From Lama glama (Eukaryota): a DNA stretch of 64,000 nucleotides. Position 1 is the first letter of the stretch, and each line of letters opens with the position of its first letter. The notes beneath the pieces are model-generated. The model was given only the letters and a program-made list of their open reading frames with translations. It ran no database searches and had not been told where the DNA came from. Where the stretch lies: contig CM052830.1 in NCBI GenBank assembly GCA_028534125.1, forward strand, positions 10,478,001 through 10,542,000. Reading direction: 5' to 3'. Both the position numbers and the translations under genes were made by a program. Of this stretch, positions 6,681-57,716 are shown piece after piece.

Positions 6681-7409
6681 CAAATATCTCAATCTCTTGA
6701 GGACGAATCCTCGTTGCCTCTCTTCCTCTGCTGGCAGAGGCGATGTGATGGATATCAAGGAAGACTAAATCCCTGAATGGCCGTGCTGGCAGAATGTTGC
6801 AGGAAGGGAAGGAAAGTCTGTATCTGGAATATGTATCTATTGCTGCGGGGGAAAAGAAATGTTACGCTCCCCGTGATGTAAGGGCTGCAGTGTAATTAAT
6901 TTGCTGCCAAGTGACTGGCAGATCCCCCAGGGGAATGGTCCCAGGTCACGGACTCAGCAAGGGCTCTAGCCAGAAGTCCAGGCTTTAGAGCCCTTGTGTT
7001 TTCTGCCTATCTGAGGTCAAGGGCCTGTTCTTGGGCCCTCTGAGCAAACAATAGCATGGACGGGAGAGGAGACTGGCTGACATTAACAGGACAAATACTC
7101 TTGTCTGTCTGATCGTCAGTAGCCTCCACCAGTATGGATACCCTCCGGGGAGCATTATGTGAGATTTGATTATCCTCCCATTCTGCCACTCGTTGACTGG
7201 CTAGTCCCCCAAAATAATGGCGCTATATGGGTGACCTCACTCCAAGACCCTATAGGTCTTCTGTTGGGGTTCACCAGGACTTTCATGATGTACCCCGTCT
7301 GCCCCGGACAGTTTTGGACATCATTGGATTTGCTCGATCAGCTTCTGGGGGTTCAGAGCTTGTGGGAAAGGGTGGACAATGGATCTGCGGGGACAAATGG
7401 AGAACATTC

Positions 7410-7672
7410 AGCAGGGAGGCTTCTCCTGAGCACCTTATTTAAAGAAGCTCTCCCACCCCCAAAGTGCCTCCATCATACACCTAGTCTATTTCCATGGTAG
7501 CACTCATAATGATCAAAATTTATCTGATTTATTTACTTGTTAATTATTTGTCACCTTTACTAGGATGTAAACTCCATGAGAGCAAATAATCTGCCTATCT
7601 CATTTGTTTTTATACCCTCTATGCATAGAACAATGAATGACATGTAATAGGTACTCAATAAATATTACTTGA
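7410..7672 (+). mobile_element. L2 3' end
   Basis: 'actaggatgtaaactccatgagagca' and 'taggtactcaataaatatt'. Confidence 0.8.
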
Positions 7673-8987
7673 AGCCATGATTCATTGTAAGGTCTCTTCT
7701 GGCGTGAATATTCTATCGTTCAGGGCGCCAATAAGCATTCAATAATTATTAGGTATTCTTATGATGGTATATTTTCTCTGGACTCATCACATAGTCTGCA
7801 TAGCTCAGTGGTTCTAGAAGGATTTTATTTTCTGAGTCTAGGGAACCTCTTTTAATGAGCCAGCCATCTGTGGAGCAGAATAGCTATGAACTTTGGAATC
7901 AGCCAGCATATCGAACTGCAAGCTACATCCCAGTATGAGGCCCATAAAGCATTTTTCAAATGTTTGCCATATATGCAAAAGCACACCACACACACACACA
8001 CACACCAGCCTGACATTTGCTTACCCTAGGCAGAATGAGCCTTTGTAACTAGGGGAAGAAGCTGGGCTCAGTCCAATGCAGCATTGGTAAATTCCTCGCC
8101 AAAGATCAGGAACAGGGAGTCAGTGTTCTGTTAGACCCTTGTGCCTGGCTTATCTTAACTCCTCAGCTCCCATGGCCACTTGACCCCATTGGTGTCACAG
8201 GGATGGGAGCTAATCTCCATCGGCGGGGCAGACTGAGGTCCAGTCAAGAGCGGGTATCCTCAACCCTCCGTGCTGACTAGCAGCAGTAGTCATTGTGTTC
8301 AAGACTGAGCCAGCCAGTGGGTCATTTGGCTGGGGGCCATCTGAGGAGGTAATCTTCAATTTAAGTTTTAACCAAAAAGTGACTGGAAACAAGGAAATTC
8401 TAGAATCTTTACAGACCAGCAACTATAGCTCCATTTTTTCCCCTCTTTGCTGAGTAGCCCCAGAATCTGAGTTTCTTGTCTTGGCTAAATGACCAGAAAC
8501 TCATTGAGGAGGGCCAAATGGCAGATGCAGGACAATCGTGTGGGGATCCATGGAAGAAAGGCCTTCCTTGAAGATATACGTGTTATCTCTCAAAGCTGCC
8601 TCATCCTGGGAACCCTGCTTTGCAGAGAGGTATGTATGACACACACGAGCCTTCTCTTGGGCCCTCCTGGATGGGCAGCTCTTCCAAAGTCATTCCCTAC
8701 TGGTGATTTCATGGTGTAGTTCTCCCGATGGGATGAAGCTCCTCCCCTGGGGGCCTGGAGCTTAAAAAGAGGAGAAGTTCCCCCCACCCCCTTCCCACCC
8801 TATCCTCTCCATCTCCGTAAGACTAGCACATGGCCACGTAAAATTCTTTGCCGAACAAAGGAGAATATTTTTGGAAAGTAAAGGCAAACTAAGGAAGGCA
8901 ATGGATAAAGTTCTAGCTAATTTAGATCTTCTTAGCTTCACTCAAGGGAAGATACACCTGGATATAGGTAAAGATGGTATGTGCTGG

Positions 8988-9780
8988 CAGGGGTGTATTT
9001 GCCAAGAAGCCAAGGGAGCTTTAGCTCTGGGACCCTTACTTGCATAGGTCCCTTACAACGCCCTAGGAACCGGCCTAAGAATGTGTTCAAGTGCTTGTAG
9101 GTTTTTGTACAATTGGCAGAAGTAAGATATTTTAATTGCAAGCAATTAAGAACCACTGTCTAATGCCACTCCATTTTATTCTTGATCACACATCCCCTCT
9201 GATTCAGGGCCATTGGAGGGATCATAGACATTTGTGTTTCAGTGTAAAATACAGAGGTGGTTGCTTTCACCACGCACCGCTGTGTAGTTACCAGTAGCCG
9301 TTCTGCGCTGCGATGGCTTCTAGGAAGAGACATCATGCCTCACGTGCTGGCTTACCCAGCAATGCCACACAAAGGAGCATGTCCCAAGGTCCTGAGAATG
9401 CTGGTCTCATATGGGGACCAGAGCCACAAGTATGTAGGCAGTAGGGTAGAGAGATGAAGATATGAAACATACAGAGTCAGAGACAAGTCTGGAAAGTTCT
9501 TCCAAATCTACAGCCCATAGGAGACAGAAAGAAAGTAGATACTGGTTTTCAGGAACTAATAACAATTTCAAAAAAATTATATCACACGACCAAAAATAAT
9601 TTTTGAAGGCAAAGGAAATTTCCTAATCTCTCAATAATAAAAAATAAGTTTTACTTACTATGCTAAAGGAAAAATGGAACTACCTTCTTATTCTCTCTAC
9701 AAGAAATATTACAAAATCCCAGAGGGTAGCTAAAAACTATGGGCAAACACTATTTTAGAGGTGTGTCAAACAATTGAACT
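8988..9780 (+). mobile_element. hAT-Tip100 DNA transposon remnant (Zaphod/MER115-like)
   Basis: 5' 'caggggtgtatttgccaagaagc...gctttagctctgggaccc', 'gcagaagtaagatattttaa', and a decayed transposase C-terminal segment at ~9610-9720. Confidence 0.6.
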
Positions 9781-25245: not shown

Positions 25246-26439
25246 ATAATTGGAAATGGGAGTTAGTGGTAAGGGCAGAAGAAATGAATTTAAGCTGGAG
25301 TCTCTTTAGTTTTCAAAGAAGATACGTGAGCATCAAGAAGCTCCCAGATTCTCCTTCTGAGGGACAAGAGATTTCACGCAGTGAGATTAAAAAGAACAAA
25401 AAATGTCTTAGCTAACGTTATTCTCAGAAAGTTTGCCCAATTTAAGTGCCTCTGTGATTCTGGATTCCTTCCAGACCCCAATATGGCACTGTCAGGCTTT
25501 GAAAAAAAAAATGAGATTTCCGTGGCAGGCGGGTCCCAAATGGAAAGAAGTTCCAGAAATGTGACAAGGGTTTTACAGTTTCTTTGGGAAGATGTAGGAG
25601 CTCTGTGCAAATCTGTAATAAGCTTAAAAACGAAGGATCTGACCATCTAAATGTTTTGGACTAGTTACTGTTTACACTGTGGTGAGACAGGGGCAGGTGC
25701 CAAGGTCATACTTGAAAAGGTCACACCTTCTCATCCTTTTCATGGAAGGAGGTGCTCCCACAGCGCTGCAACCAGGAGACAAAGGGCAGAGAGAAGGGGA
25801 GAGAATGTGGGGGTTGAACCCTAGAAAAATAGAGTGTACTGTGTGGCTGAAGAGCTGTGGTTGCACCGACAGTTTATTAGGAAGAGAGTTTCTGTAAATA
25901 ATTGCCCTTTGCTTGGCTTGTGTAATTGGTGGACAATGAGATGGAGAGCCTATCACTGCTATAAGCACTTCCACTTAGGCGAGTAGCTTGCAGCTGATTT
26001 AGGGAGCACCTGGATTCTTGTAAGAGACCGGGTAGCAGACTTGTCTCTAGGACACATCCTTCTTGCAGCCGAGCCCAGCTGCAGCTCTGCGTGGCTTGAG
26101 GCAAAATCTCAGTGAGTGCTTGGAGCTCTGGGAGCCTCTTTGTCACTCACTACTGAACTTCAGCTGAGGACAAACAGCTCCTTCTAAAAATAAGAAGGGG
26201 AGCAAGTAGGCACAACCACAGTGCTGCCCAGGGCCATGAGACTCTCCAGTATTGACACTCATCTCTGTTTACCGCTCTTGTTCCTAAGGGCAAAATGATC
26301 ATGTATCCTCATCCTTAGGAAATTTCATGTCATTCCTTCTTGGAGGGACAGGATGATGCTGCTCACCTTTCTCCACCACTCAGCACCTGTTGAAGACGGG
26401 AAAGGATGGAGTTATTGTGAAGCAAGCAGTGCTTAACAT

Positions 26440-27300
26440 CTTTTACTCTCCATCCCCCCAGGGACCACCTTCAGGGCAAAGACACTCGCGTTCCCAGCTT
26501 CCTGTAACCGCTCATGGCCGAACTTCTCACCAGGAATTGACCTCAGCCTAATGCAGCTTCTTCATCAAAGGGACCCCCGTGACTGGGGCTTCCTACATCC
26601 AATGGCCGCTCAGTGTGGGGACTCAAAGGCCCATTCATTATTTAGGAAAGTCCTTGGCATGGAGTACATGCTCAATAAATGTTCACGGATGGAACCTCGA
26701 AACTGACTGGCTGAGGGGTCCTGACAAATGACACACCCTCTTCCTGCCCTTTGTTTCTACAGAGTGTGAGCCTTAGAGGATGTTAGGGTTCAGGTGCTGC
26801 TACGGTTCACTCCATGGCAGTAGAGGCTGGTTGAATGATAATACTGATGAATAATAACTATTATTTAAGGCTCGCTGGGTAACAGGTGAATGCTAGGTGC
26901 TGCAGATGCACTCTCTTAATTAATTCTCAGACAACCTAGCAGCTTTAGCCCCCATTTAATCAGTGAGGACAAGGAGGCTCCGACCCCTCAGATGACTCAC
27001 CCATGCTCAGTCACTGAGCGACTTCAGGGCGACTCTGGAGAGTCAGCCCAGCTCTAAGCTCCACGTGGGACTGGCTGGAGCCTTTCCTGAGGCTTCAGTG
27101 CAGCTCAGCTCCTCCCTCCACCCAATTCTACTTCCAGCCTCTCTCCCCTCCAGCACTGAAGCCGATCATCCTCGCTTTAGTCGAACATTTAATGGAGTAG
27201 GTGGCTTGAGTTAAGGTCCCTTATGTAAAAAAAAATACCCGTGTTCACGTACTAGACTCAGCTTCACTATGGAAAGATGCTTGGAGGAACCCAGCCTGAC
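26440..27300 (+). mobile_element. ERVL LTR16-family element split by an inverted duplication
   Basis: Left half ends 'cctacatccaatggccg...caaaggccc'. Right half resumes 'gactctggagagtcagcccagctctaagctccacgtggga...ctccctccacccaattctacttcc', colinear with the LTR16 layout. Confidence 0.65.
26636..27014 (-). repeat. Inverted duplicate (copy A) of 36057-36439
   Basis: Direct reverse-complement alignment, roughly 90% overall. 26763-26863 is identical to the reverse complement of 36206-36306. Confidence 0.95.
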
Positions 27301-27529
27301 TGAGGGCATAGAATATTTAGATCTCCCAAATCATGCTGACATCCTGTGGCATAAAACGTGAAGCGTGGAATGTCCTTTTGTGTGTGGGGTGGGGTGGATG
27401 CGTATAATTGAATCCATGTACCTTAGAAGTGTGTTTGGTGTGACCTCACTAATTTACATTCACACATATGTGTATGTCACCCTCATTAGACTGTGATCAA
27501 AGGTTGTGGTAAATTCCTCTAAATATGTG

Positions 27530-28090
27530 TACACAGTGCAAGGAAAGTTTATAAGAGTAAGACCCAAGCTAATCTGGGAGTTCAGCAAAGGCTTATTTTG
27601 GGAAGTGACATTTCAGTTAAGGCTGAAGGATGAGTGGAAGTCAGCCTGGAGCAAGGGGCAGAGCGGGGAGCGCGATGGGCATGATGGGGACCTGGGTGTG
27701 TGGCTGGGGCCTGGGAAAGGCAGAGGGGGTGGCTCCAGGCTGTGCTGGGGAGGTGGGAAGGGGACTACTCATGCAGAGCCATGCTAAGGGTTTTGGATTT
27801 TAATCCAAGGCTGAGATGAGTCATTGAAAGGTTTTAAACAAGACAGTGACACAATCAGATTTAGATTTTTTAAAACATTGCTTTGGTCCTGCATTGAATG
27901 GGGCTAAGAGGGGATCTGATAGAGGCATCAAGGCTACTGTAATTGTCTTAGAGATGATGGTGGCTTGGGAGAGGGTGAAATGTAGAGATATTCGGATGTG
28001 CATTAGTGGGGATTTGGAAGCTGATTTGATCTGGAGAGGGAGAATTTTTAGAGGGACGTTTGACATGGCCACATCTGGGATGGTTTTCCT
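27530..28090 (-). mobile_element. L2 fragment
   Basis: 'ggaagtgacatttcagttaaggctgaaggatgagt', 'cattgaaaggttttaaacaagacagtgacacaatcagattt'. Confidence 0.75.
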
Positions 28091-30310
28091 CCAAGTAACT
28101 GTGAACTTCCAGCTCCAAACTTCTCACAGTTGTGGAAATGACACAGTTCACCACCATAGTAACAGGTACACGTTCGAGCACATGAAGAGTATTCTTTAAA
28201 ATTAGATAGGCCTCAGCTTCTGGAGAACAGGGTGTCCACAAAGCTTGAATTAACTCAAGGAGTACAAAAACGATCAGAAAAGCACATTGGGCACAAGAAG
28301 GCTGCCCGTGTTGACTCGTGCTCTGCGTGGGCATGAATGGTAGGTGACACCTTTGCTCAGTGACAGAGACTGCAACCTTGCAGCACTGGCGAGAACCACA
28401 GAAGTCCGCTGGAGAACAGCAAGCTTTCAGTTCGAATTTTTCACTCTTTTCCTCATGTAAGAAATAATTTGGCTCTTGTCTCTCCTCAACATCACTTACA
28501 ATTATGAAAGCTGAGCGGAGAGAGAACAAGAATGAAATTCTACTTCGTGTCATTGCAAAGCGTAACCTTAACCACTTTTAATATACAGATTGTCCAGAAA
28601 GTGCTAACAGGTTCTGAAAGTTGCTGCTCTATTTCTCTGTAGCTATGGCAAAAGGAATCATCTGGAACAAGGTCAGTATTGACAGTTTGATAGTGGCTTC
28701 TTATTCCAAACACTCTGCACTGTCTCCAATCATGTAATACCTATATTAAGTCAGCGAGTGTTTATTCGACAAATTACATGTAAGTGAAAATTTGTGAAAT
28801 GGTGTGCAGCATGCATGAGTAAAAGTGCTAAAAGGGAATAAGCAGCAAGAACTATACTCTAGGAATCCAGCCAGAGCTGCCCGGGATACGGAGAATGAAA
28901 GTAAAGTTAGCCGGCGCGCTTGCATCCTTTGTTACACCGGGGACAGCGTGGGAAGGGTCCCAGAGGCAAATGCACAAAGCGCCAAACTATGAGGCGCTGG
29001 CAACCTTGGCTTCAGGGTCTTCATCTGAAAATGTGAAGGAAAAACCGGGCTGGGCTAACAAGATAACTCACAAATCTAAGTATAGGAATACTGATCTGAG
29101 TTCTGCTAGACTAACTTGTAAATCTAGGTTAATTAGTGTTGGTTTCCTGTTCATGTTTTTTGCTAGCCAGCTGGGTTTTCAAAGATACATATCTGGCTTT
29201 GGAATGTTGGTTTGCTGCCTCCCTGCCTCCACTTTTGTGATGATCATGCTGCTAAAGCTGTTCCATGCCTATTGGCCGAATACCCCAGGCTTGTACTTTA
29301 CCCTGTAAAACCTCACGCACACATCTTGGAGGTGCTCAGAGCTTGGAGCAGAAGCCCCTCTGAGCCCACCGGCGTAATACATCTGAGTACTCCAACCCTC
29401 CGAGGGGTGCTTGTTTCTTGCCTGGCCTGTCGTTTCCGTAACAAAAACTGCTCCCACTAACTGAATTGCCCAAGGCCCTCTAAGGTCCCATCCACTTCTA
29501 GGACTCAGTAAATTTGCCTCTGAAGTTTGCCCTGTTCTCATGACATACCGGGGCTCAAACATTGCGGGGGACTGCCTCAATGAAGGGCACAATTGCTTTG
29601 GGGGCCAGCTTAATCCCCCTAAGTGAAGTATCTGTCAAAGACATGACGACCTAGGAAATCACACTATTCAAATGAAAGAGACAGGTACTACTTCTTTGTA
29701 TTTTAAACAAAACACAACTTCACCAGGATATTGTTAGAAACGATTATTAAAAATCTGAGGTCTTCCCAAACAAGGAATGCACACGATAAAAGGATGTTGT
29801 TGGAGGCACCACAAAATTTTAAGAACATTGCTGACACACTCAGAGTGAGCCCTGGAGGCACACTATAAACTCCCATCAACCGTGAAAAATGAAACTCATT
29901 TTGAACAATGAAGAATGAACTGACCCCTCCTGCACTGGCAAAGCCCAGGGAGTGGCCTGGTGTGACCTACCCTCCTTCAAGGGTGGGGACACAGCCTGGG
30001 GAAATCACTTCTGAGATGCGGGCTCCCTAGAGAGAACTCCTGGCGTGATGATCTCTTAGAGCAAATTTCCAAAAATGAGTCCAAGAAAAGCGTTCCCAGT
30101 TTCTCCATTCCTCAGCAGTATTTTGAAATCAGCTTTTTCTCCTCTGCTCCAGATGCCCAGGGCCCACGAATGCCTTTCATGACATCATGCTACATTAACC
30201 TCTCATGCAAGGCAGCTGCTTTCTGTGATCCAAAGATTGGGGGGAAGAAAAAGACAAATCAAAACAAAACCTAATATTTCAGGAGGCTATGTAAGTAGGC
30301 CAGGACTTAC

Positions 30311-30373
30311 CTTCCACCACAGGCCCATCTGCCGCCAGGACTGAATCTTATCTGATCATTTCCATGGCAACAG
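30311..30373 (-). other. Candidate 63-nt spliced exon (host transcript unknown)
   Basis: Minus strand: 'ccttcatcctattctaatcccacag|CTGTTGCC...GGTGGAAG|gtaagt', giving a pyrimidine tract, a branch-like ctaat, CAG and a consensus donor. Motif evidence only. Confidence 0.3.
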
Positions 30374-30475
30374 CTGTGGGATTAGAATAGGATGAAGGTT
30401 TAGGAAGAGTTGCTGGAATTCAGTCCTAGACTGAGTGAGGATTATTTAACTACACACTTGCGTTGCCATGGGAAC
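30358..30475. promoter_or_regulatory. Pair of RFX X-box motifs
   Basis: ATTTCCATGGCAAC (30358-30371) and GTTGCCATGGGAAC (30462-30475) vs palindrome GTTGCCATGGCAAC. Confidence 0.45.
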
Positions 30476-30778
30476 ACAAATTTACAAATCGGGCAGGATT
30501 TTTGTAGCTCAGTAGCACAGTATTATATTCATAGGACTGCTTCAAATCCCCCAATTCCATCTCCTCCCCCATCAGGGGGTAAATATCCCACTTGATGCGA
30601 GTTAATTATTCCCCAGATATTTTTCTCTTTTAATTTTTAAAGCAGAAATGCGAATAGACTTAGACTAGGACCAAAGCCATCGTTCTCAAAATGCTTTTCC
30701 ATTTTGTTTTTTAAAGAAAAATTTAGCTTGTTCTAAAGAATCTAAAACATATGATGATCAGCATACTCGTATAAGAGT

Positions 30779-30989
30779 ATTTGCAGATACTAATATATAT
30801 AAAAATAGATAAACAACAAATAGCACAAGGGACAATATTCAATATCTGGTACTAACTTATGGTGAAAAAGAACATGAAAACAAATATATGTATGTTCATG
30901 GATGACCGAAGCATTATGCTGTACACTAGAAATAGACACAACATTGTAAACTGACTATACTTCAACAAAAAAATAAATATATACAAAAA
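30779..30989 (+). mobile_element. Camelid L1 3' end
   Basis: 'tatgctgtacactagaaatagacacaacattgtaaactgactatacttcaa' plus A tail. Short TSD aagagt. Confidence 0.85.
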
Positions 30990-31134
30990 AAGAGTCATTT
31001 AAGTACCATGTAAGTCCAAGCCAAAATTATGCTGATTAACAAAAAAGATGTTTATTTCTTGTCAGGTGTGTCACCTCTGGTCTTCTAGTTCATTTAACAC
31101 CAAATTAATTTCAGGAAATCAGCACTACTTCATT

Positions 31135-31330
31135 ACCGACCACTGTTTTAGAATTTACAAACCGCTTTCACCACCAACCATAACTTGTTTGATTTCACAA
31201 CAAGCTCACGCTGAAGGGAGAGCAGGAATCACCACCTGCATTTGGAGGTGAGAAACTGTGGTTTAAGTGTTCCCGTGGCTCGCACAAGGCAGGCAGCCTT
31301 TCGTCATTTCCCATGATTTCCAGCCCCTCA
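31135..31330 (-). mobile_element. MIR fragment
   Basis: 'catttggaggtgagaaactgtgg'. Confidence 0.5.
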
Positions 31331-32219
31331 TCTCTTTGGTCTGTTGATGGGAAATACCCATGAGGACTCCAGTGAGGACTTTTTAACTTCTTACAATGTC
31401 GCTAATAGGATGCCTTAGAAACGGACTCACTTTATCTTTTCTTGCCTGTCCATCCTTCCTCAAACTGCTCATCTTCTTGGAGGAGCACATTCTTTGGACT
31501 GGGAAGACCTAATGACATTTCTTGCCTCTGATTTCTGAAGTGGGGGCACGGGGCACGTGGGAACTCTCACAGATGGGGAGCACTCAAGCACAGCAGACCA
31601 AGAATAGATGGGCTTAGAACCAGTTCCACTCCTGAGAAGAAGCAGATGCTGGTGGGCAGACCCACCCTGCAGGCACTAGGAGAAAGTCCAGTGAGAAGCC
31701 ACGGTGAGTGAGTATCAAGGCAGCGGCAGGAACAAAAGCTGGTGTGGAGTGTCTGATAGGAGGTGGAGGAGTTCTGGGGATGACCATTTTTCACCTTCAA
31801 AAAGCCCGCAATTCAGCTAGTCAGAGTCCTGCAGGGGGGCTGGGAGGCTGGGAGGCTGGGAGAAGTTGGGAGGAGTGTGAGGACTTCCGAAGTGGAGGTC
31901 CCAGCACATCCCTGAGATGCAGCTCAGGCAGATGCCGAAGGACATGATAAAGGATGTGTGCTGAGGCTCTTCCTGGGTTTGCTTAAGCTGGACCAGCCAC
32001 TAGGAGGAATTTTGGTTGACTTCTGAGCACTGGGCTGGCACTTTTAGGACTCAGCTCAGGAGATGGGTGATGTGGCACACGGGGTTAGGGTGGAGATGGT
32101 TCTGCTGTGAAAAGAAGACATTATCAGAGGCCGGGCTGAAGGACCACCACATTAGGGCACCACACATCTGGTTTGGAGCCTGCGTGCATGTCAGATTCAC
32201 CTGAGGTTGATACATGGTC

Positions 32220-32410
32220 CCACCACCTGCTAGAAATATCAGGTCAGGACAGTTACTTCATTTCTCTAAGTCTTTGTTTTCTTCTCTGTAAAATGGGGTA
32301 ATTACAGCCTTTATAGCAATGGGTTATTCTGAGAAGTAAATAAGCTAATTCTTATTAAGTGCTTGGACACAGCTTAATTTGATCAAAAGCTTAAGAACAG
32401 GTAGTGTTTA
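32220..32410 (+). mobile_element. MIR
   Basis: 'ttttcttctctgtaaaatggggtaat'. Confidence 0.7.
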
Positions 32411-32554
32411 CTCTTCATCTGATGTCACCTCTGGGTGTGGGCGGGGCTGTGGTGTGACAGACGGTGGAACTTATTCTGGGCTAAGAGAGTTTTAAAAATC
32501 CACACCAGCTCTCTCAGCTCATCCCCTGAAGATGGGATTGTATGCAAGGGCATT

Positions 32555-33255
32555 ATTTTGCAGGGCAACCTAGTCACATCCAAAGGCACGTGGCTTTTTA
32601 TTTTTATACAGTTGATTGACAATGTGTTAATTTCTGGTGTACAGCATAGTGATTCAGTTATATACATATATATATTCTTTTTCATTATAGGCTATTACAA
32701 GCTATTGACTATATAGTTCCCTGTGCTGTATAGTAGGAACTTATCAAAGGCACATGGCTTTTAACCCCTGAACACTTCCTAGTAATTACCCTGCATGCAC
32801 CAACACACAAAGATGTTTATTGTAGGATAGTTTGTAATAGCAAAAAAAGTACAAAATAAAGACCACTCACATCTGGGGATAACCTCAATATCTTAATAGG
32901 GAACCAAAAGGATAAATATGGCATAAATATTCAATGAACATTGTGCCGCAGTTAAGTAGGTGCAATTGGTCTATCCGTGCCAGCACACAAAGATCCCCAA
33001 TACGCACCATCAAATGAGGCAAACAAAGTGCAGAATAGAGCATGATCCAATTTGTATAAAAATATAGGCATATGGACGCAGGCTGCAAATGTATAAACAA
33101 TTTCGAAAGGGACCCATGAGAAACAGTCGGTAACAGTTACTTCTGAGAGTGGGACAGAGGTTCATAGAGAGATGGAAGCATTTATTTCTCACTTTACGCT
33201 TTTCAGTACTCTTTGTAATTTTTAAATGATCACATGTATTCCTTATTAGTAAAAT
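32555..33255 (+). mobile_element. Old L1ME-type 3' fragment
   Basis: 'aagatgtttattgtagg...tttgtaatagcaaaaa', 'taacagttacttctgagagtggg'. Confidence 0.6.
32599..32744 (-). mobile_element. Camelid L1 3' end nested in an older L1
   Basis: 'aatttctggtgtacagcatagtgattcagttata'. 18-bp TSD caaaggcac(g/a)tggctttt (32581-32598 / 32745-32762). Confidence 0.9.
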
Positions 33256-33411
33256 TAGTCTTAGACAATAATGGAAGGGCTTGCATTGGTGCAACGGACC
33301 AACCAAAAGTTGGGGAGGGAAAGGAGATTAAAAAAAAAAAGAAGAAAGAGAAACAAAGAACTACGTTAATTGGTAGGAGTGAAATAATTTTTATAGGATC
33401 TTTGTAAAAAC

Positions 33412-33718
33412 ATTTAACAGCTTTGTTTATACATAATTTACATGCCATAAAATTCCATACCATTTAAAGTGTAGAATTCCTTGGCTTTAAAGTGCATTTA
33501 TAGAATTACGCCCTCATGGACATAATCTAATTTTAGGACAGTTCATCACCTCAAGAGAAGCCACGCACCCATCAGCAGTCACACCTCACTCCCCAGCGCC
33601 TTCACCCTTACCCCTTGGCAAACACGGGTTTGCTTCCTGTCTCTATAGATGTGCCTGTACTGGACAGTCCCTATCACTGGAATCATCCAGTACGTGCTCT
33701 TTCATGCCGGGCTTCCTG
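33412..33718 (-). mobile_element. L1MB-type 3' end
   Basis: 'ataatttacatgccataaaatt...tttaaagtgta', 'cccatcagcagtcac', 'ctgtctctatagat...ctggaca'. Confidence 0.75.
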
Positions 33719-33807
33719 TTCTGACAGTGTTCTAGCGTCATCTTCACAGAGGTGGTTTCCAGTTTCGAGAAAAAATGCTGGAAAGATTTTGGAACCCACA
33801 CCAAGCC

Positions 33808-33965
33808 TTTTGTTGTTGTTGTTGTAGTGGATTTATAATGTTGTTAGTTTCTGGTGTACAGCGTAGTGATTCAGTTATACGTATATATTCTGTTTCATAG
33901 TCTCTTTTATTATGGGTTATTATAAGATATTGAATACAGCAGGACCTTGTTTATCTGTTTTAATA
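33808..33965 (-). mobile_element. Camelid L1 3' end
   Basis: 'ttagtttctggtgtacagcgtagtgattcagttata' with a (TTG)n tail. Confidence 0.8.
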
Positions 33966-34010
33966 GCCATGTTTATATCTCCCTTTTACCCTGATTGTGC
34001 TTAGCGCATT

Positions 34011-34852
34011 TGTGATATTTTGATTTATTAATAGGGAGATACATTCGGTCTTCATCACCATTCCTGGCACAGAGCTCTTAAAACCCTTGGATTCCTAAGT
34101 GATAAGAACACTAGGAACCTTTTTTGTTCTACTGAGGTGACTCTGGATGGGCTTCTGGGTGGCTCCTGGATCAGGGTTTGTCACCAGAAAGACCAAGACA
34201 TGATTAAAACTTTAGAATTTTAATCCCTATTCTCCGTTTTCCAGAGAGGGGAGATGGACTGTAAATGGTGTTAATGATTGATCGTGCCTGTGTGAGGCAG
34301 CTTTCATAAAAACCCCAATGGTGCAGGCTTTGGAGAGCTTCCAGGTTGGTAAACACATCCACATACCAGGAGGGCGACACACCCCAACTCCGCAGGGACA
34401 GAAGCTGCCAGGCTTGGGACCCTCCCAGACCTCACCCTCGGTATCTCTTCATCTCTGTCCTTTATCATATCCTTTAATAAACTGGTAACCTGTGTTTCCC
34501 TGAGTTCAGTGAGCATGCACGAGCAAACCAATCAAACCCAAGGAGGAGGTCATGGGAACTTCGGTTTTATAGCAGGTGGTCAGAAGCACAGGTGACAACC
34601 TGGGACTGGCGTCTGTGGTCTGACGAAGGATGGGGACAGCTTTGTGGGGCTGAGCCCTTCGCCTGTGAGATCCGATGCTGTCTCCTGATAGATCGCATCA
34701 AAATTGAGTTAATTTGTAGGACACCCAGTGGGTGTCCCAGAGAACTGCTTTGTGGGGGAAAACCCACACGCAGCTGGTGTCGGAAGTGTTGCCTGACTGT
34801 AGTGTCAGAGTAAAGGGGATACGCAGGACGAAGGCTGGTTTTTTTCTTGCAC
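34011..34852 (+). mobile_element. MER21-family solo LTR
   Basis: 'ttcctggcacagagctcttaaaacccttgga', 'gtcaccagaaagaccaag', 'ggagagcttccaggttggt', 'aataaactggtaa', 'ggtcagaagcacaggtgacaacctggga'. Confidence 0.85.
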
Positions 34853-35044
34853 AACACTGTTACAGCCATTGTGCAAGCTCAAAAATTACAGGCTCAGAGG
34901 CTGCAAAGATGAAATTTGGGAGCATCCAGTGGAGAACTTGCAGATGTCTAAGACTTTGGGTGGAGCATTAGTTAGCGGGCTTCCTCAGCTCCACCACTAG
35001 CCACGCTGCGATGTACCTCATTGCTGTCCCTTTGATCTCAGCTC

Positions 35045-35450
35045 AGTTCTTGAACATTCTCGTCCAGGCATTTCACTAGGTGTTGTTCGTTGCAAAGATG
35101 GAGGTGGCACTGTCCCTTCCCTCATGAGGTTTATACCTTAAGGTAGGAAAAATGACCACTTCATGTGTATTGCACAAGTAAGGACAGGGTGCCTGGGTGC
35201 ATGGTGGAGAAACAGATGAATGACTAAGGCTAAGAGGGTCTAGGATGGCTTCTCAGGGAGGTGACACAACAGCCAAGAAGAACCCCAAAGGGCAAGTAGG
35301 AGTTCCCAGTGCCAACAAGAAGGGACGGCATTCCAGGAAGAGAAAACTGTGTGCGTGAAGGTGTAAAACATGAAAGGACAGAGGGTAATTGAGGACCTGT
35401 GTGTCATTTAGGTGCTATTGGAGCACAGACTATAAAGGAAACAATGTGGG
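35045..35450 (-). mobile_element. L2 fragment
   Basis: 'gtcccttccctcatgagg', 'ggcttctcagggaggtgaca', 'ggcattccaggaagagaaa'. Confidence 0.65.
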
Positions 35451-35979
35451 GGGACCTGGTTAAAGGCACCTGGTTAAACCTGAGTGTACCTCTGTCTGCT
35501 CAGAGCACTGTTGCTGATTTTAAGCCAAAATGTCAACAGCACTTTTTAAGTATTTGCCACTATTATGATTATTATTAATTCTAAGATTTGTGCTAATGTC
35601 TAATTCTATTAGGATGTCTCTAGGAGATAGGACTTATAAAATATTCTGTCTTGATATTATTTAAAAATTTTGCTGAAATGCATTTATTCTACATAAAATG
35701 CTTGTACATTCTTCTTTTGGAAGGTACGTTAACACCTAAACAGTCAACATTTAGTCAGAACTTCACTTCTGACAAGTATTTTTTCTCTCTCTCTATCTCT
35801 TTATGTCTCTGTGTCTCCATCTCTCTCTCTCTTTCTCCAGGCAGGAAAGTTCTGGATAAAGCATCTTTATTCAGTCATTTCATTCTTGGATTTGCAGGGG
35901 AAATGCCTCTCTTTTAGCAAGAGAGGATGAGAAATCAGGGGAACAAAATGTGTCAACTGATATTGAAGCTGTTCTCCAG

Positions 35980-36230
35980 TGGAGCAGCAGGCAAAAGCCC
36001 AGGATTTCAAGTCAGAGAGCCCCAAGTTCACGTCTCAGCGCCGCCACTGATGAGACGTGACAGCTTGAATGGGTCATCTGAGATGTGCGAGCCTCCTTGT
36101 TCTCACTGATTAAATGGGGGCTAAAGCTGCTAGGTTATCTAAGAATTAAATAAGAGAGCGCATCTTTAGCACCTAGCATTCACCTGTCACCTAGCGAGCC
36201 TTAAGTAATAGTTATTATTCATCAGTATTA
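35980..36230 (+). mobile_element. MIR (part of the duplication donor)
   Basis: MIR head 'ggatttcaagtcagagagccccaagttca' continues into 'gagcctccttgttctcactgattaaatgggg'. Confidence 0.65.
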
Positions 36231-36439
36231 TCATTCAACCAGCCTCTACTGCCATGGAGTGAACCGTAGCAGCACCTGAACCCTAACATCCTCTAAGGCT
36301 CACACTTTAGAGAAATGGTGGCAAAGGGTAGGAAGAAGGTTTGCCATTTGTCAGGACCTCTCAGCCAGTCAGTTTTGAGGTTCCATCCGTGAACATTTAT
36401 TGAGCATGTACTCCATGCCAGGGACTTCCCTAAATATTG
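36057..36439 (+). repeat. Donor copy (copy B) of the inverted duplication
   Basis: Reverse complement of 26636-27014. The flanking MIR and L2 continue beyond both ends here. Confidence 0.95.
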
Positions 36440-36655
36440 TGGCTTTAGCAATGAGCAAAACAGGCAAAAATTACTGCTCTCGTAAACCTTACAATCTAGC
36501 GGAGGAGGAAAGACAATAAAAACTTGAATAAGTGAGGCATATAGTATGCCAGATGGCGGTAAGTACTAAGCTGAAAAGTAAAGCAAAGATGCGGGAGGAT
36601 GCATGTTAAAGTTTGGAGGAGGGTTTGCAATTTTAAACAGGGTGGTCAGTGCCAA
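36360..36655 (-). mobile_element. L2 3' end
   Basis: 'aacatttattgagcatgtactccatgccagg', 'aaaacaggcaaaaattactgctctcgtaaaccttacaatctag'. Confidence 0.75.
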
Positions 36656-37446
36656 AAAAGCTCTCCAAGGAGATGATTCACAGAGAATTCGTACCCATTC
36701 ACAGAAGAACCTGCTTGGGACCCAAAATGGCACCTGCAACTCACAGCAGAAATTTGAAGCCAGTGGGTGGGTAAGAGGATGGTGCCCGCCTCCCCCTGAC
36801 CCCAGGCAGTCTCCTTATAAGCAGCTCAGCTGATGTCTCCCACTAGAGTTTTTTGTTGTGCGCTATGGGTCAGTCCCTCTAGAACAGGACTATCACACCC
36901 ACATCATAAATGCCATGCAAGCATGCTTGAGACTTGGAGAGGTCCCTGCTGCCATCTGGAGCACCCTGGGAGATGGAGCTCCCCGTAACTGAGCCAGGGC
37001 CACGTTGGCAGGAAGCTGCCAGGCACAGCCCACTGTGCTGTGGAATTTACTCCTCTGCCAGAAATTGCTATCCTCTTGTTCCACAAGGTCCCGTGAAAGC
37101 AAGAAACAGTATTCAGTGACGTATAATGGCAACAGGAATTAGAGAGGAACAGACTTGTCTCCAGTGTGAATTTCTTGGCGGGACTTTTATTTCCAGTGGA
37201 TTTCCCCTTTCTGAGTGGGGATAAGGCAAATGGTAATTCCAAGGAGATGGCACTACGATACCTTGATTTCTGGAATCACATACAGAAATGACTTCATCCA
37301 GTGAAGAAATATCTTTATAACATTCAAAACTATCTTCTCTGCCTAAAGTATTAAAAAATAGTAGAATGTTACACAAAGCTGTGACCTCCATGGGGAGCAA
37401 ACACGCTTAGCAGATATGTCTTCTCCAGAAGTGGGTTATATGAACG

Positions 37447-57273: not shown

Positions 57274-57716
57274 ATTCCATTTGCAGCAACATGCATGAAC
57301 CTAGAGATTATCGTTATTAAGTGAAGTAAGTCAGACAAAGACAAATCTCATATGATATCACTTATACGTGGAATCTAAAAAAAGATACAAATTTTATTTA
57401 CAAGGCCAAAATAGACTCACAGACATAGAAAACAAACTATGGTTACCATAGGGGAAAGGGCGGGGGGAGGGATAAATTAGGAGGTTGGGATTAACAGATA
57501 CAAATTACTATATATAAAATAGACAAACAACAAGGAGCTACTCTATAGCATAGGGAACTATATTCAATTTTTTGTAATAACAGATAATGGAAAAGAATCT
57601 GAAAAGAAAGAATATGTATGTATGTATAAGTAAAACTGAATCACTTTGCTGTACACTTGAAACTAACATTGTAAATCAATTACTCTTCAATAAACATCAA
57701 TTAAAAAATTTAAAAA
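57274..57716 (+). mobile_element. Camelid/artiodactyl L1 3' end
   Basis: 'ccatttgcagcaacatg...aagtgaagtaagtcagaca'. 16-bp TSD agaattgac(a/c)tgtgct (57258-57273 / 57717-57732). Confidence 0.9.

Follow-up and report, generated by a model that had tools for sequence, protein, structure and literature searches.

The closest described counterparts of the locus reported here are the repair-mediated duplications (RDs) of Pace et al. 2009 (PMC2671141). An RD is an insert of at least 50 bp that splits a transposable element (TE), and its junctions may carry microhomology (2-9 nt in their Table 1), a deletion of 1-15 nt and filler. The RDs numbered 202 in cow and 824 in human; of the 1,136 cases, 824 had their donor no more than 5 kb away, and just 58 others on the same chromosome were more distant, part of which these authors considered true RDs. 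An inverted case (ACSBG2) is among their examples, and inversion of the intervening sequence was already named there as a possible consequence. A second class, designated 'Inverted Dup', accounts for 54% of the characterised inversion calls in the 1000 Genomes structural variation map (PMC4617611). It has also been reported that conversion is elevated between copies less than 10 kb apart (PMC6598467).

Here we analyzed a pair of inverted copies in a 64,000-nt stretch of Lama glama DNA (the window, to which all positions refer). Our main reading, with a probability of roughly 0.86, is that neither copy is an artefact, that both are inherited and colinear with the sequence around them, and that the copy at 26.6 kb likely arose as a repair-mediated duplication. 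The names L2, MIR and LTR16 are putative assignments that follow an initial sequence-only reading of this DNA and the sequence patterns of these families. The features concerned are:

26454..26633, + strand: dispersed host repeat, left half (left limit approximate), putatively LTR16-type
26634..26635, no strand: likely left-junction filler, 2 nt, following 3 nt (26631-26633) common to the donor upstream flank
26636..27014, + strand: acceptor copy, comprising an L2 3' tail (~26636-26690), a unique spacer and a truncated MIR (~26840-27014); right end within 26997-27014
26763..26863, + strand: mismatch-free run between the copies, 101 nt, likely a later gene-conversion tract
27015..27163, + strand: right half of the host repeat, which picks up close to the point where the left half breaks off
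27015..36056, no strand: segment between the arms, 9,042 nt, in ancestral orientation in this assembly
35996..36124, - strand: MIR-type SINE crossing the donor inner edge (profile match; single-copy alignment to locus L013)
36057..36439, - strand: donor copy (self-BLAST and pairwise alignment)
36392..36707, - strand: L2-type LINE 3' end crossing the donor outer edge (profile match 36534-36392; single-copy matches)

In a self-BLAST of the window, 26636-27014 was the reverse complement of 36057-36439 over 385 columns (90.1% identity, E 2e-148), which was the top HSP among the 24 non-self HSPs listed. Together with the pairwise alignment, this bore out the initial suggestion that an inverted ~380-bp duplication brackets a 9-kb segment. 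The copies differ by 30 mismatches in 377 ungapped columns (21 transitions and 9 transversions), one 6-nt indel and one 2-nt gap close to the right end. They are now ~8.6% apart (K2P), which is 2.4 times (95% interval 1.5-3.8) the divergence between the window and a further sequencing run, X19. A DNA search of the genome with the block detected at least two places (both of the two candidates matched), and a genome-wide search for a 23-nt pattern from the core, in which at most 2 mismatches were allowed, found exactly the two known places (control, 0). No match to the core was found in a metagenome scan. Within 1.264 Mb nearby there were 14 local two-copy pairs, of which six were at least 84% identical, each of them less than 10 kb apart.

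We compared contigs from runs X1, X2 and X9 (three organisms) and from X19 over 25900-30250, and the insert was present in all four. Both acceptor junctions were bridged by contigs 25900-26684 and 26938-29057/29061 of X1, X2 and X9, and the right junction also by an X19 contig (26778-27235) that was ~3.4% diverged. The presence of this junction in so diverged a run indicates that the pair is inherited and old and is not a misassembly; the insertion is older than the split from the X19 lineage. X2 and X9 each had a distinct contig for the donor allele (one with 9 differences and a 6-nt insertion, the other with 9 differences). The X19 contig ends in a run of nine A (27227-27235), and our guess is that X19 is RNA; no donor-type contig came from this run, which has no bearing on whether a transcript spans both arms. 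It showed A>G at 14 places and T>C at 5. We did not take this excess as RNA editing, since the displayed A>G changes were mostly outside the arms and were without matched DNA.

At 26.6 kb, the interrupted sequence is a dispersed repeat: the host motif 26599-26620 had 69 genomic matches versus 8 for the control. Pairwise alignments to 12 host-family copies placed the end of the left half at 26628-26633 in nine. With HOXD70 scoring and controls, 14 of the 49 motif loci gave a right-half alignment immediately after the motif that scored higher than any control, and the other 35 did not beat the control; the offsets in the 12 strongest of the 49 loci were -15 to +6, and +3 to +6 in nine of the 12. 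As judged against genomic copies and not a library consensus, the host is colinear across the insert within the ±30 bp tolerance of Pace et al., with a loss of 0 to about 7 nt at insertion. These motif loci and family alignments confirm the proposal of an acceptor with colinear interrupted halves. An earlier, harsh scoring of 29 loci had been mostly at shuffle level. A DNA search with the left half and an exact search with the host motif each returned the self-match only, and single-sequence nhmmer with either half in 464 kb gave nothing below E 0.85. It should be noted that the empty acceptor site was deduced from other host-family copies and not from an orthologue, a procedure which Pace et al. 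called less conclusive (PMC2671141).

At 36 kb, a profile of the L2 type, constructed from other copies, spans 36534-36392, running over the edge at 36439 (E 7e-11), and a MIR-type profile spans 36124-35996, over the edge at 36057 (E 3e-8). In the acceptor copy, the match to the same L2 profile is limited to 26635-26683, and the MIR-type profile had no match at E<=1. Single-copy alignments agreed with the profiles, linking the MIR to L013 across the edge and the L2 to window positions 7359-7667 and to locus L040. The composite nature of the block, claimed at the outset as L2 tail, unique spacer and part of a MIR, was confirmed in this way, and so was the choice of the 36-kb copy as donor, as both L2 and MIR continue beyond the block edges. 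From this continuity and from host colinearity at 26.6 kb, it follows that the segment 27015-36056 is in its ancestral orientation.

The initially assigned block start at 26636 stood, but the right junction did not stand as a single point, as it can be placed only within about 26997-27014. The score of the host left end against the donor upstream flank was in the top 0.5% of 59,972 positions, for a window size picked after looking. At the right junction, flank similarity ranged from the top 0.3% to the top 15% depending on the window (15% with a 14-nt window), and it was only in the top 3% when the ambiguous 5 nt were excluded (also scored after looking). The sequence suggests that the junction microhomology is short and old and that the left-junction filler is likely 2 nt. 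Pace et al. described microhomology, filler and a small deletion at RDs (PMC2671141). The present junctions are old, with 3 shared and likely 2 filler nt on the left and an ambiguous right end; their features fall within the Table 1 ranges and may reflect a repair-mediated origin.

We propose that a break would have occurred inside the host repeat at 26.6 kb and that its left end may have found a short match immediately upstream of the donor block and primed there, leaving ~2 nt of filler at this end. Synthesis with the opposite strand 9 kb away as template would then likely have added about 375 bases, and the new strand would have re-annealed to the right end of the break (SDSA-like capture). 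Template switching during replication, away to the donor and back again, would have the same outcome and would be indistinguishable from such capture. The duplicated structure is most likely neutral.

The 101-nt identical run had p values of 0.0008-0.05, depending on how clustered changes are merged (0.01-0.05 when merged). This p value was the lowest among the 14 local pairs and was below those of all 10 distant pairs; a second identical run of 44 nt was not significant (p 0.08). The depth at 26814 was ~2x the single-copy depth in X1, X2 and X9, so the core is collapsed into one contig in these runs as well. Outside the core, the block is 11% diverged, mostly by transitions. Lineages do vary within the core, since position 26814 has a different base in X19, which covers 86 core bases and has one difference among those displayed (10 of 16) versus ~3 expected, a deficit that is not significant. 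On this sequence pattern, we lean toward a later ectopic gene-conversion tract; chance clustering is a possible explanation that we hold with less conviction, and constraint on both copies is doubtful. Homogenization of the kind seen in non-allelic conversion between Alu pairs less than 10 kb apart (PMC6598467) would give a patch like 26763-26863, although the substrate here is a unique two-copy one and conversion is read from one alignment. In a test for GC-biased conversion, the strong/weak asymmetry between the copies was 17 versus 8 (p 0.11, unpolarised).

The same run and the single X19 difference would also fit a pair that has been kept functional, with the core a constrained duplicated regulatory element or the arms an inverted repeat, upstream of the OATP gene, that actively flips or is edited, and the arms are predicted to pair strongly as RNA (about -657 kcal/mol). 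This is improbable, however, given the transition-rich divergence of the rest of the block, the change at 26814, the non-significant deficit in X19 and a core shorter than the lengths of 134-232 bp and 300-500 bp cited for efficient recombination; no transcript spanning both arms was observed.

The arms may be a substrate for inversion of 27015-36056 and a source of dsRNA, as the sequence-only reading had proposed. A stronger version is that they are still recombining, so that the core is an exchange younger than the X19 split and a 9-kb flip-flop inversion is hidden from short-read contigs; a crossover inside the core would be invisible in contigs because these break at identical stretches. 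We consider this about as improbable as retention by function. At 101 nt, the longest perfect match between the arms falls short of the lengths that PMC2583991 quotes for efficient recombination, though exceptions for close repeats are given there as well. If the arms do flip, the repeat would be far shorter than textbook recombination substrates; if the core reflects conversion with crossover, a 380-bp, 92%-identical repeat would be capable of inverting 9 kb in the neighbourhood of a transporter gene.

It is still less probable that L1 retroposed a short piece of a transcript into the host repeat. Signs of retroposition were reported for 17 of 29 inter-chromosomal cases of Pace et al. (PMC2671141), and the present pair is beyond their 5-kb cut-off. 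However, no A/T tract (polyA or polyT) was found at either insert end, and the longest word repeated across the junctions was 5 nt, about chance level, which is no convincing target site duplication (TSD); the initial statement that polyA and TSD are absent thus held. In addition, the host apparently lost a few bases and did not duplicate any, and an RNA intermediate would not be expected to land 9 kb from its source. Flank continuity, host colinearity and the absence of polyA and TSD support the claim of a templated, non-retroposed origin with donor-to-acceptor polarity.

A 9-kb inversion by staggered breaks, leaving duplicated breakpoints (dupINV type), would produce a similar geometry of inverted copies bracketing a segment, but it predicts a single ancestral flank per copy, which is not what we found: L2 and MIR are both on the 36-kb copy, the 26.6-kb copy is flanked by the two host halves, and such an origin is very unlikely. 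Least probable of all is a misassembly or a pair of members of a dispersed composite family, since, fragmented as the assembly is (1,072,352 contigs), the copies differ at 30 sites and by indels, runs of three organisms contain the two alleles as well as the two acceptor junctions, and the pattern search and the genome DNA search (the latter a lower bound) found no third copy, so that neither of these two early concerns was borne out.

Read as a repair-mediated duplication, the pair is an ordinary case of a known class of repair scars, catalogued by the hundreds, and is unusual only in its 9-kb distance, which lies in the tail. Like the RDs of Pace et al. (PMC2671141), it splits a TE with colinear halves (theirs ±30 bp), has exactly one donor, on the same chromosome, is shorter than 619 bp and lacks polyA. 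Unlike their proximal RDs, defined by an ad hoc cut-off of <5 kb and assigned with confidence by these authors, it has a gap of 9,042 nt, which groups it with their 58 more distant same-chromosome cases, and its ~380 bp are more than twice the RD mean of 162 bp. A converted core would be a further difference, as the term 'gene conversion' does not occur in their paper. It also resembles 'Inverted Dup' (PMC4617611), a nearby inverted duplicate of <1 kb that is not typically linked to retrotransposition; those variants segregate as polymorphisms, almost all of them over distances of up to 5 kb, whereas this pair is old, present in 4/4 runs and 9 kb apart. The doublets of Thomas et al. (as cited in PMC2671141) are likewise short local two-copy duplicates attributed to imperfect break repair, but those surveys concerned near-identical copies of <100 bp, and the present pair is longer and older. 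The locus offers a clean example of repair-mediated capture, slightly long-range, in which donor and acceptor can both be read, and it might serve as a presence/absence lineage marker once an empty site is seen in an outgroup.

A coding role was rejected: 75 ORFs of at least 90 aa in the window had no Pfam match above the cut-off (one sub-threshold match, E 0.0096), and none of the five exon candidates in the window had a match. In a literature search on SLCO3A1, SV2B and camel, no title or abstract start among the matches listed concerned the locus. The pair is intergenic, lying between the OATP gene and SV2B and outside both protein-coding genes found nearby, and the 9-kb segment is about 63-73 kb upstream of the CpG island of the OATP gene.

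The best of the 24 non-self HSPs in a self-BLAST of the window joins two segments in inverted orientation (26636-27014 against 36439-36057; 385 columns, 90.1% identity, E 2e-148), and the proposal that one block is the reverse complement of the other was borne out by it. The parts of this arrangement are as follows.

26636-27014, acceptor copy, inside a dispersed host repeat (LTR16-type)
26763-26863, mismatch-free core
27015-36056, spacer of 9,042 nt between the arms
36057-36439, donor copy, inverted, with L2-type and MIR-type repeats at its flanks

The names LTR16, L2 and MIR are presumptive, following the labels of the sequence-only reading and the look of the sequences. Of the 377 ungapped columns of the alignment, 30 are mismatched (21 by transition); there is also one 6-nt indel and, close to the right end, one 2-nt gap. 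A genome DNA search with the block scored two candidates, the acceptor and the donor, a copy number that is a lower bound, and a genome search with a 23-nt core pattern (up to 2 mismatches) matched at these two places only. Inverted repeat pairs are not rare within the window; self-BLAST also returned 57274-57691 against 60122-59688, dispersed repeats that are 73% identical and 2 kb apart.

The acceptor-donor pair is real and inherited. Of the words sampled from 26500-36499, a fraction of 0.80-0.86 was present in 18 of 24 listed sequencing runs; these come from organisms A, B and C, and all consist of contigs rather than raw reads. Four of the 24 (X1, X2, X9 and X19) were aligned to 25900-30250. 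In each of X1, X2 and X9, one contig spans 25900-26684 and another runs from 26938 to ~29060, and contigs bridge both acceptor junctions in these runs. The separate acceptor and donor allele contigs agree with the two copies in the window: in X2, the acceptor-type contig showed no differences over 26669-26792, against 9 differences and 6 gaps for the donor-type contig, and over 26834-26962 the counts were 0 and 9. X19, which is RNA by guess only, differs from the window at 40 of 1,184 letters (3.4%) over its four listed non-repeat pieces. Its contig 26778-27235 spans the right acceptor junction, and the insert is therefore older than the window-X19 split. This contig is isolated (depth 82), includes part of the acceptor and ends at a 9-A run (27227-27235); a plus-strand transcript primed there by oligo-dT could explain this end, as could a mere contig break.

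At 36 kb, old repeats run on across both edges of the block, as the sequence-only reading had described for MIR and L2. Both edges are crossed by alignments to single old-repeat copies from elsewhere. Profiles seeded from the donor stretch, for which 464 kb supplied the other copies and both loci were left out of the building, gave the same picture: the L2-type profile covered 36534-36392 of the donor (E 7e-11) and only 26635-26683 of the acceptor, beginning at the block edge, and the MIR-type profile covered donor positions 36124-35996 (E 3e-8) with no acceptor match at E<=1.

At 26.6 kb, a left-flank motif matched the genome 69 times and its reversed control 8 times, which marks the host as a dispersed repeat. 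We examined 49 of the 68 other matches, namely 29 obtained as loci and 20 of the remaining 39 picked by eye for closest likeness to the motif start (19 were left out). The right flank aligned directly after the motif in 14 of the 49, above the best score of all controls (1629), which upholds the suggestion that the host is colinear on either side of the block; the other 35 are chance matches or too decayed. A paired test of right flank against insert at host loci gave p 4.5e-5. Offsets from perfect colinearity in the 12 strongest loci were -2, 4, 5, 5, 5, -15, 3, 5, 6, 4, 3 and -12, and the left-half alignments ended at 26628-26633 in nine of them. The host sequence thus breaks off near 26633 and picks up again near 27009-27015, and 0 to about 7 of its bases are missing. 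The insertion point (26625-26633) lies ~6 nt past the position of a TATA-like box in several family copies; the box is degenerate in this copy.

No polyA was found at the acceptor junctions, and the longest word repeated across them (5 nt) is at chance level, in line with the reported lack of polyA and target site duplication. At the left junction, the last three host bases equal the three donor bases directly upstream of the block; two bases without a match come next. In similarity windows picked after looking, comparison of the 14-nt host end with the donor flank scored among the top 0.5% of 59,972 positions; for the right flank the rank was the top 0.3%, 3% or 15% depending on window size, the best rank counting 5 nt that were possibly copied.

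The pair resembles repair-mediated duplications (RDs), a class defined by the same logic in Pace et al. 2009 (PMC2671141), which counts 824 cases in human and 202 in cow at up to 5 kb, plus 58 human pairs that share a chromosome at larger distances. It is RD-like in the colinear host halves, the single other copy and the lack of polyA or of a target site duplication above chance level; its arms are 9,042 nt apart, beyond the 5-kb cut-off. The proposed origin of the acceptor as an inverted templated copy made during repair or replication from 9 kb away is supported, and we consider a templated repair-type origin very probable (about 0.86). The pair adds another example to an already described class, the inverted form of which is named 'Inverted Dup' in the 1000 Genomes map, as quoted from PMC4617611.

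In 1.264 Mb around the window we found 14 local two-copy pairs, those other than the acceptor-donor pair being two-copy within this region. Six are at least 84% identical, two of these inverted; five are spaced at 0.9-1.5 kb, and the acceptor-donor pair is the farthest apart. A 476-bp direct pair (G000:C15 about 9976580-9978630; window -501417 to -499372) is 96.4% identical at 1.1 kb, with an identical run of 159 nt (p 0.016); two further direct pairs, both smaller, are located near -529091 and -526813. A 52-bp inverted pair (window -351333 to -349779; G000:C15 about 10126670-10128220) is 92% identical at 1.45 kb.

The K2P distance between the copies is 0.086. Their raw difference is 2.4 times the window-X19 divergence (95% 1.5-3.8), and 3.3 times (2.1-5.2) once the core is left out. 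Were X19 an Old World camel, with that split at 11-25 My (the range quoted in PMC1939714), the copy would date back roughly 25-60 My; at 2.5e-8 per 5-year generation, the rate quoted in PMC8605555, it would be about 9 My old. Firm dating is relative only.

The only feature of the pair that deserves follow-up is the 101-nt core, free of all acceptor-donor differences. Its exact p is 0.0008 with unmerged events, 0.0014 when stratified by CpG, and 0.005-0.047 after trimming the ragged right end or merging clustered changes. This p is the lowest among the 14 local pairs, and all 10 distant repeat pairs gave values of 0.01 or more. X1, X2 and X9 show about twice the single-copy depth at 26814, so the core is common to both copies there too. 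At window-X19 divergence, a stretch of 101 nt should carry about 3.4 differences (hand-calculated P of zero differences about 0.03), and any conversion is therefore likely younger than that split. X19 displays a single core change, 6 of the 16 differences of that contig not being displayed, and this change, compatible with either conversion or constraint, cannot separate them. Conversion is described as elevated between Alu copies under 10 kb apart in PMC6598467.

The window yielded no coding exon. Exons of an OATP-family transporter gene lie on the minus strand (Pfam E 8e-14), with a CpG island ~37 kb left of the window; its N-terminus and synteny suggest SLCO3A1, the database matches listed being other OATPs. 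SV2B exons, also minus strand, begin at about 195 kb in window coordinates (E 2e-30). These positions place the pair between genes, at 63-73 kb upstream of the OATP gene. An RD-like 84-bp direct duplicate (neighbouring piece L020, about 7750-9100; window -32249 to -30897), 89% identical and 1,187 bp apart, lies ~4 kb upstream of the CpG island.

If transcribed together, the arms would pair as RNA (predicted about -657 kcal/mol). The inversion potential of RDs was already pointed out in PMC2671141. As quoted from PMC2583991, shortening perfect homology from 232 bp to 134 bp lowers recombination 20-fold, and the figure for human meiosis is 300-500 bp, but repeats spaced 5 kb apart have also recombined over less than 50 bp; given these lengths and exceptions, flipping of the spacer between the arms appears possible but not favoured. 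The spacer orientation in the assembly is ancestral; run contigs break at identical stretches, and a crossover inside the core is invisible to them. Within the spacer, 29030-29443 is a repeat that is young and present in very many copies (contig depths summing to above 100,000), LTR-like on reading, with an 86.6% copy ~196 kb away.
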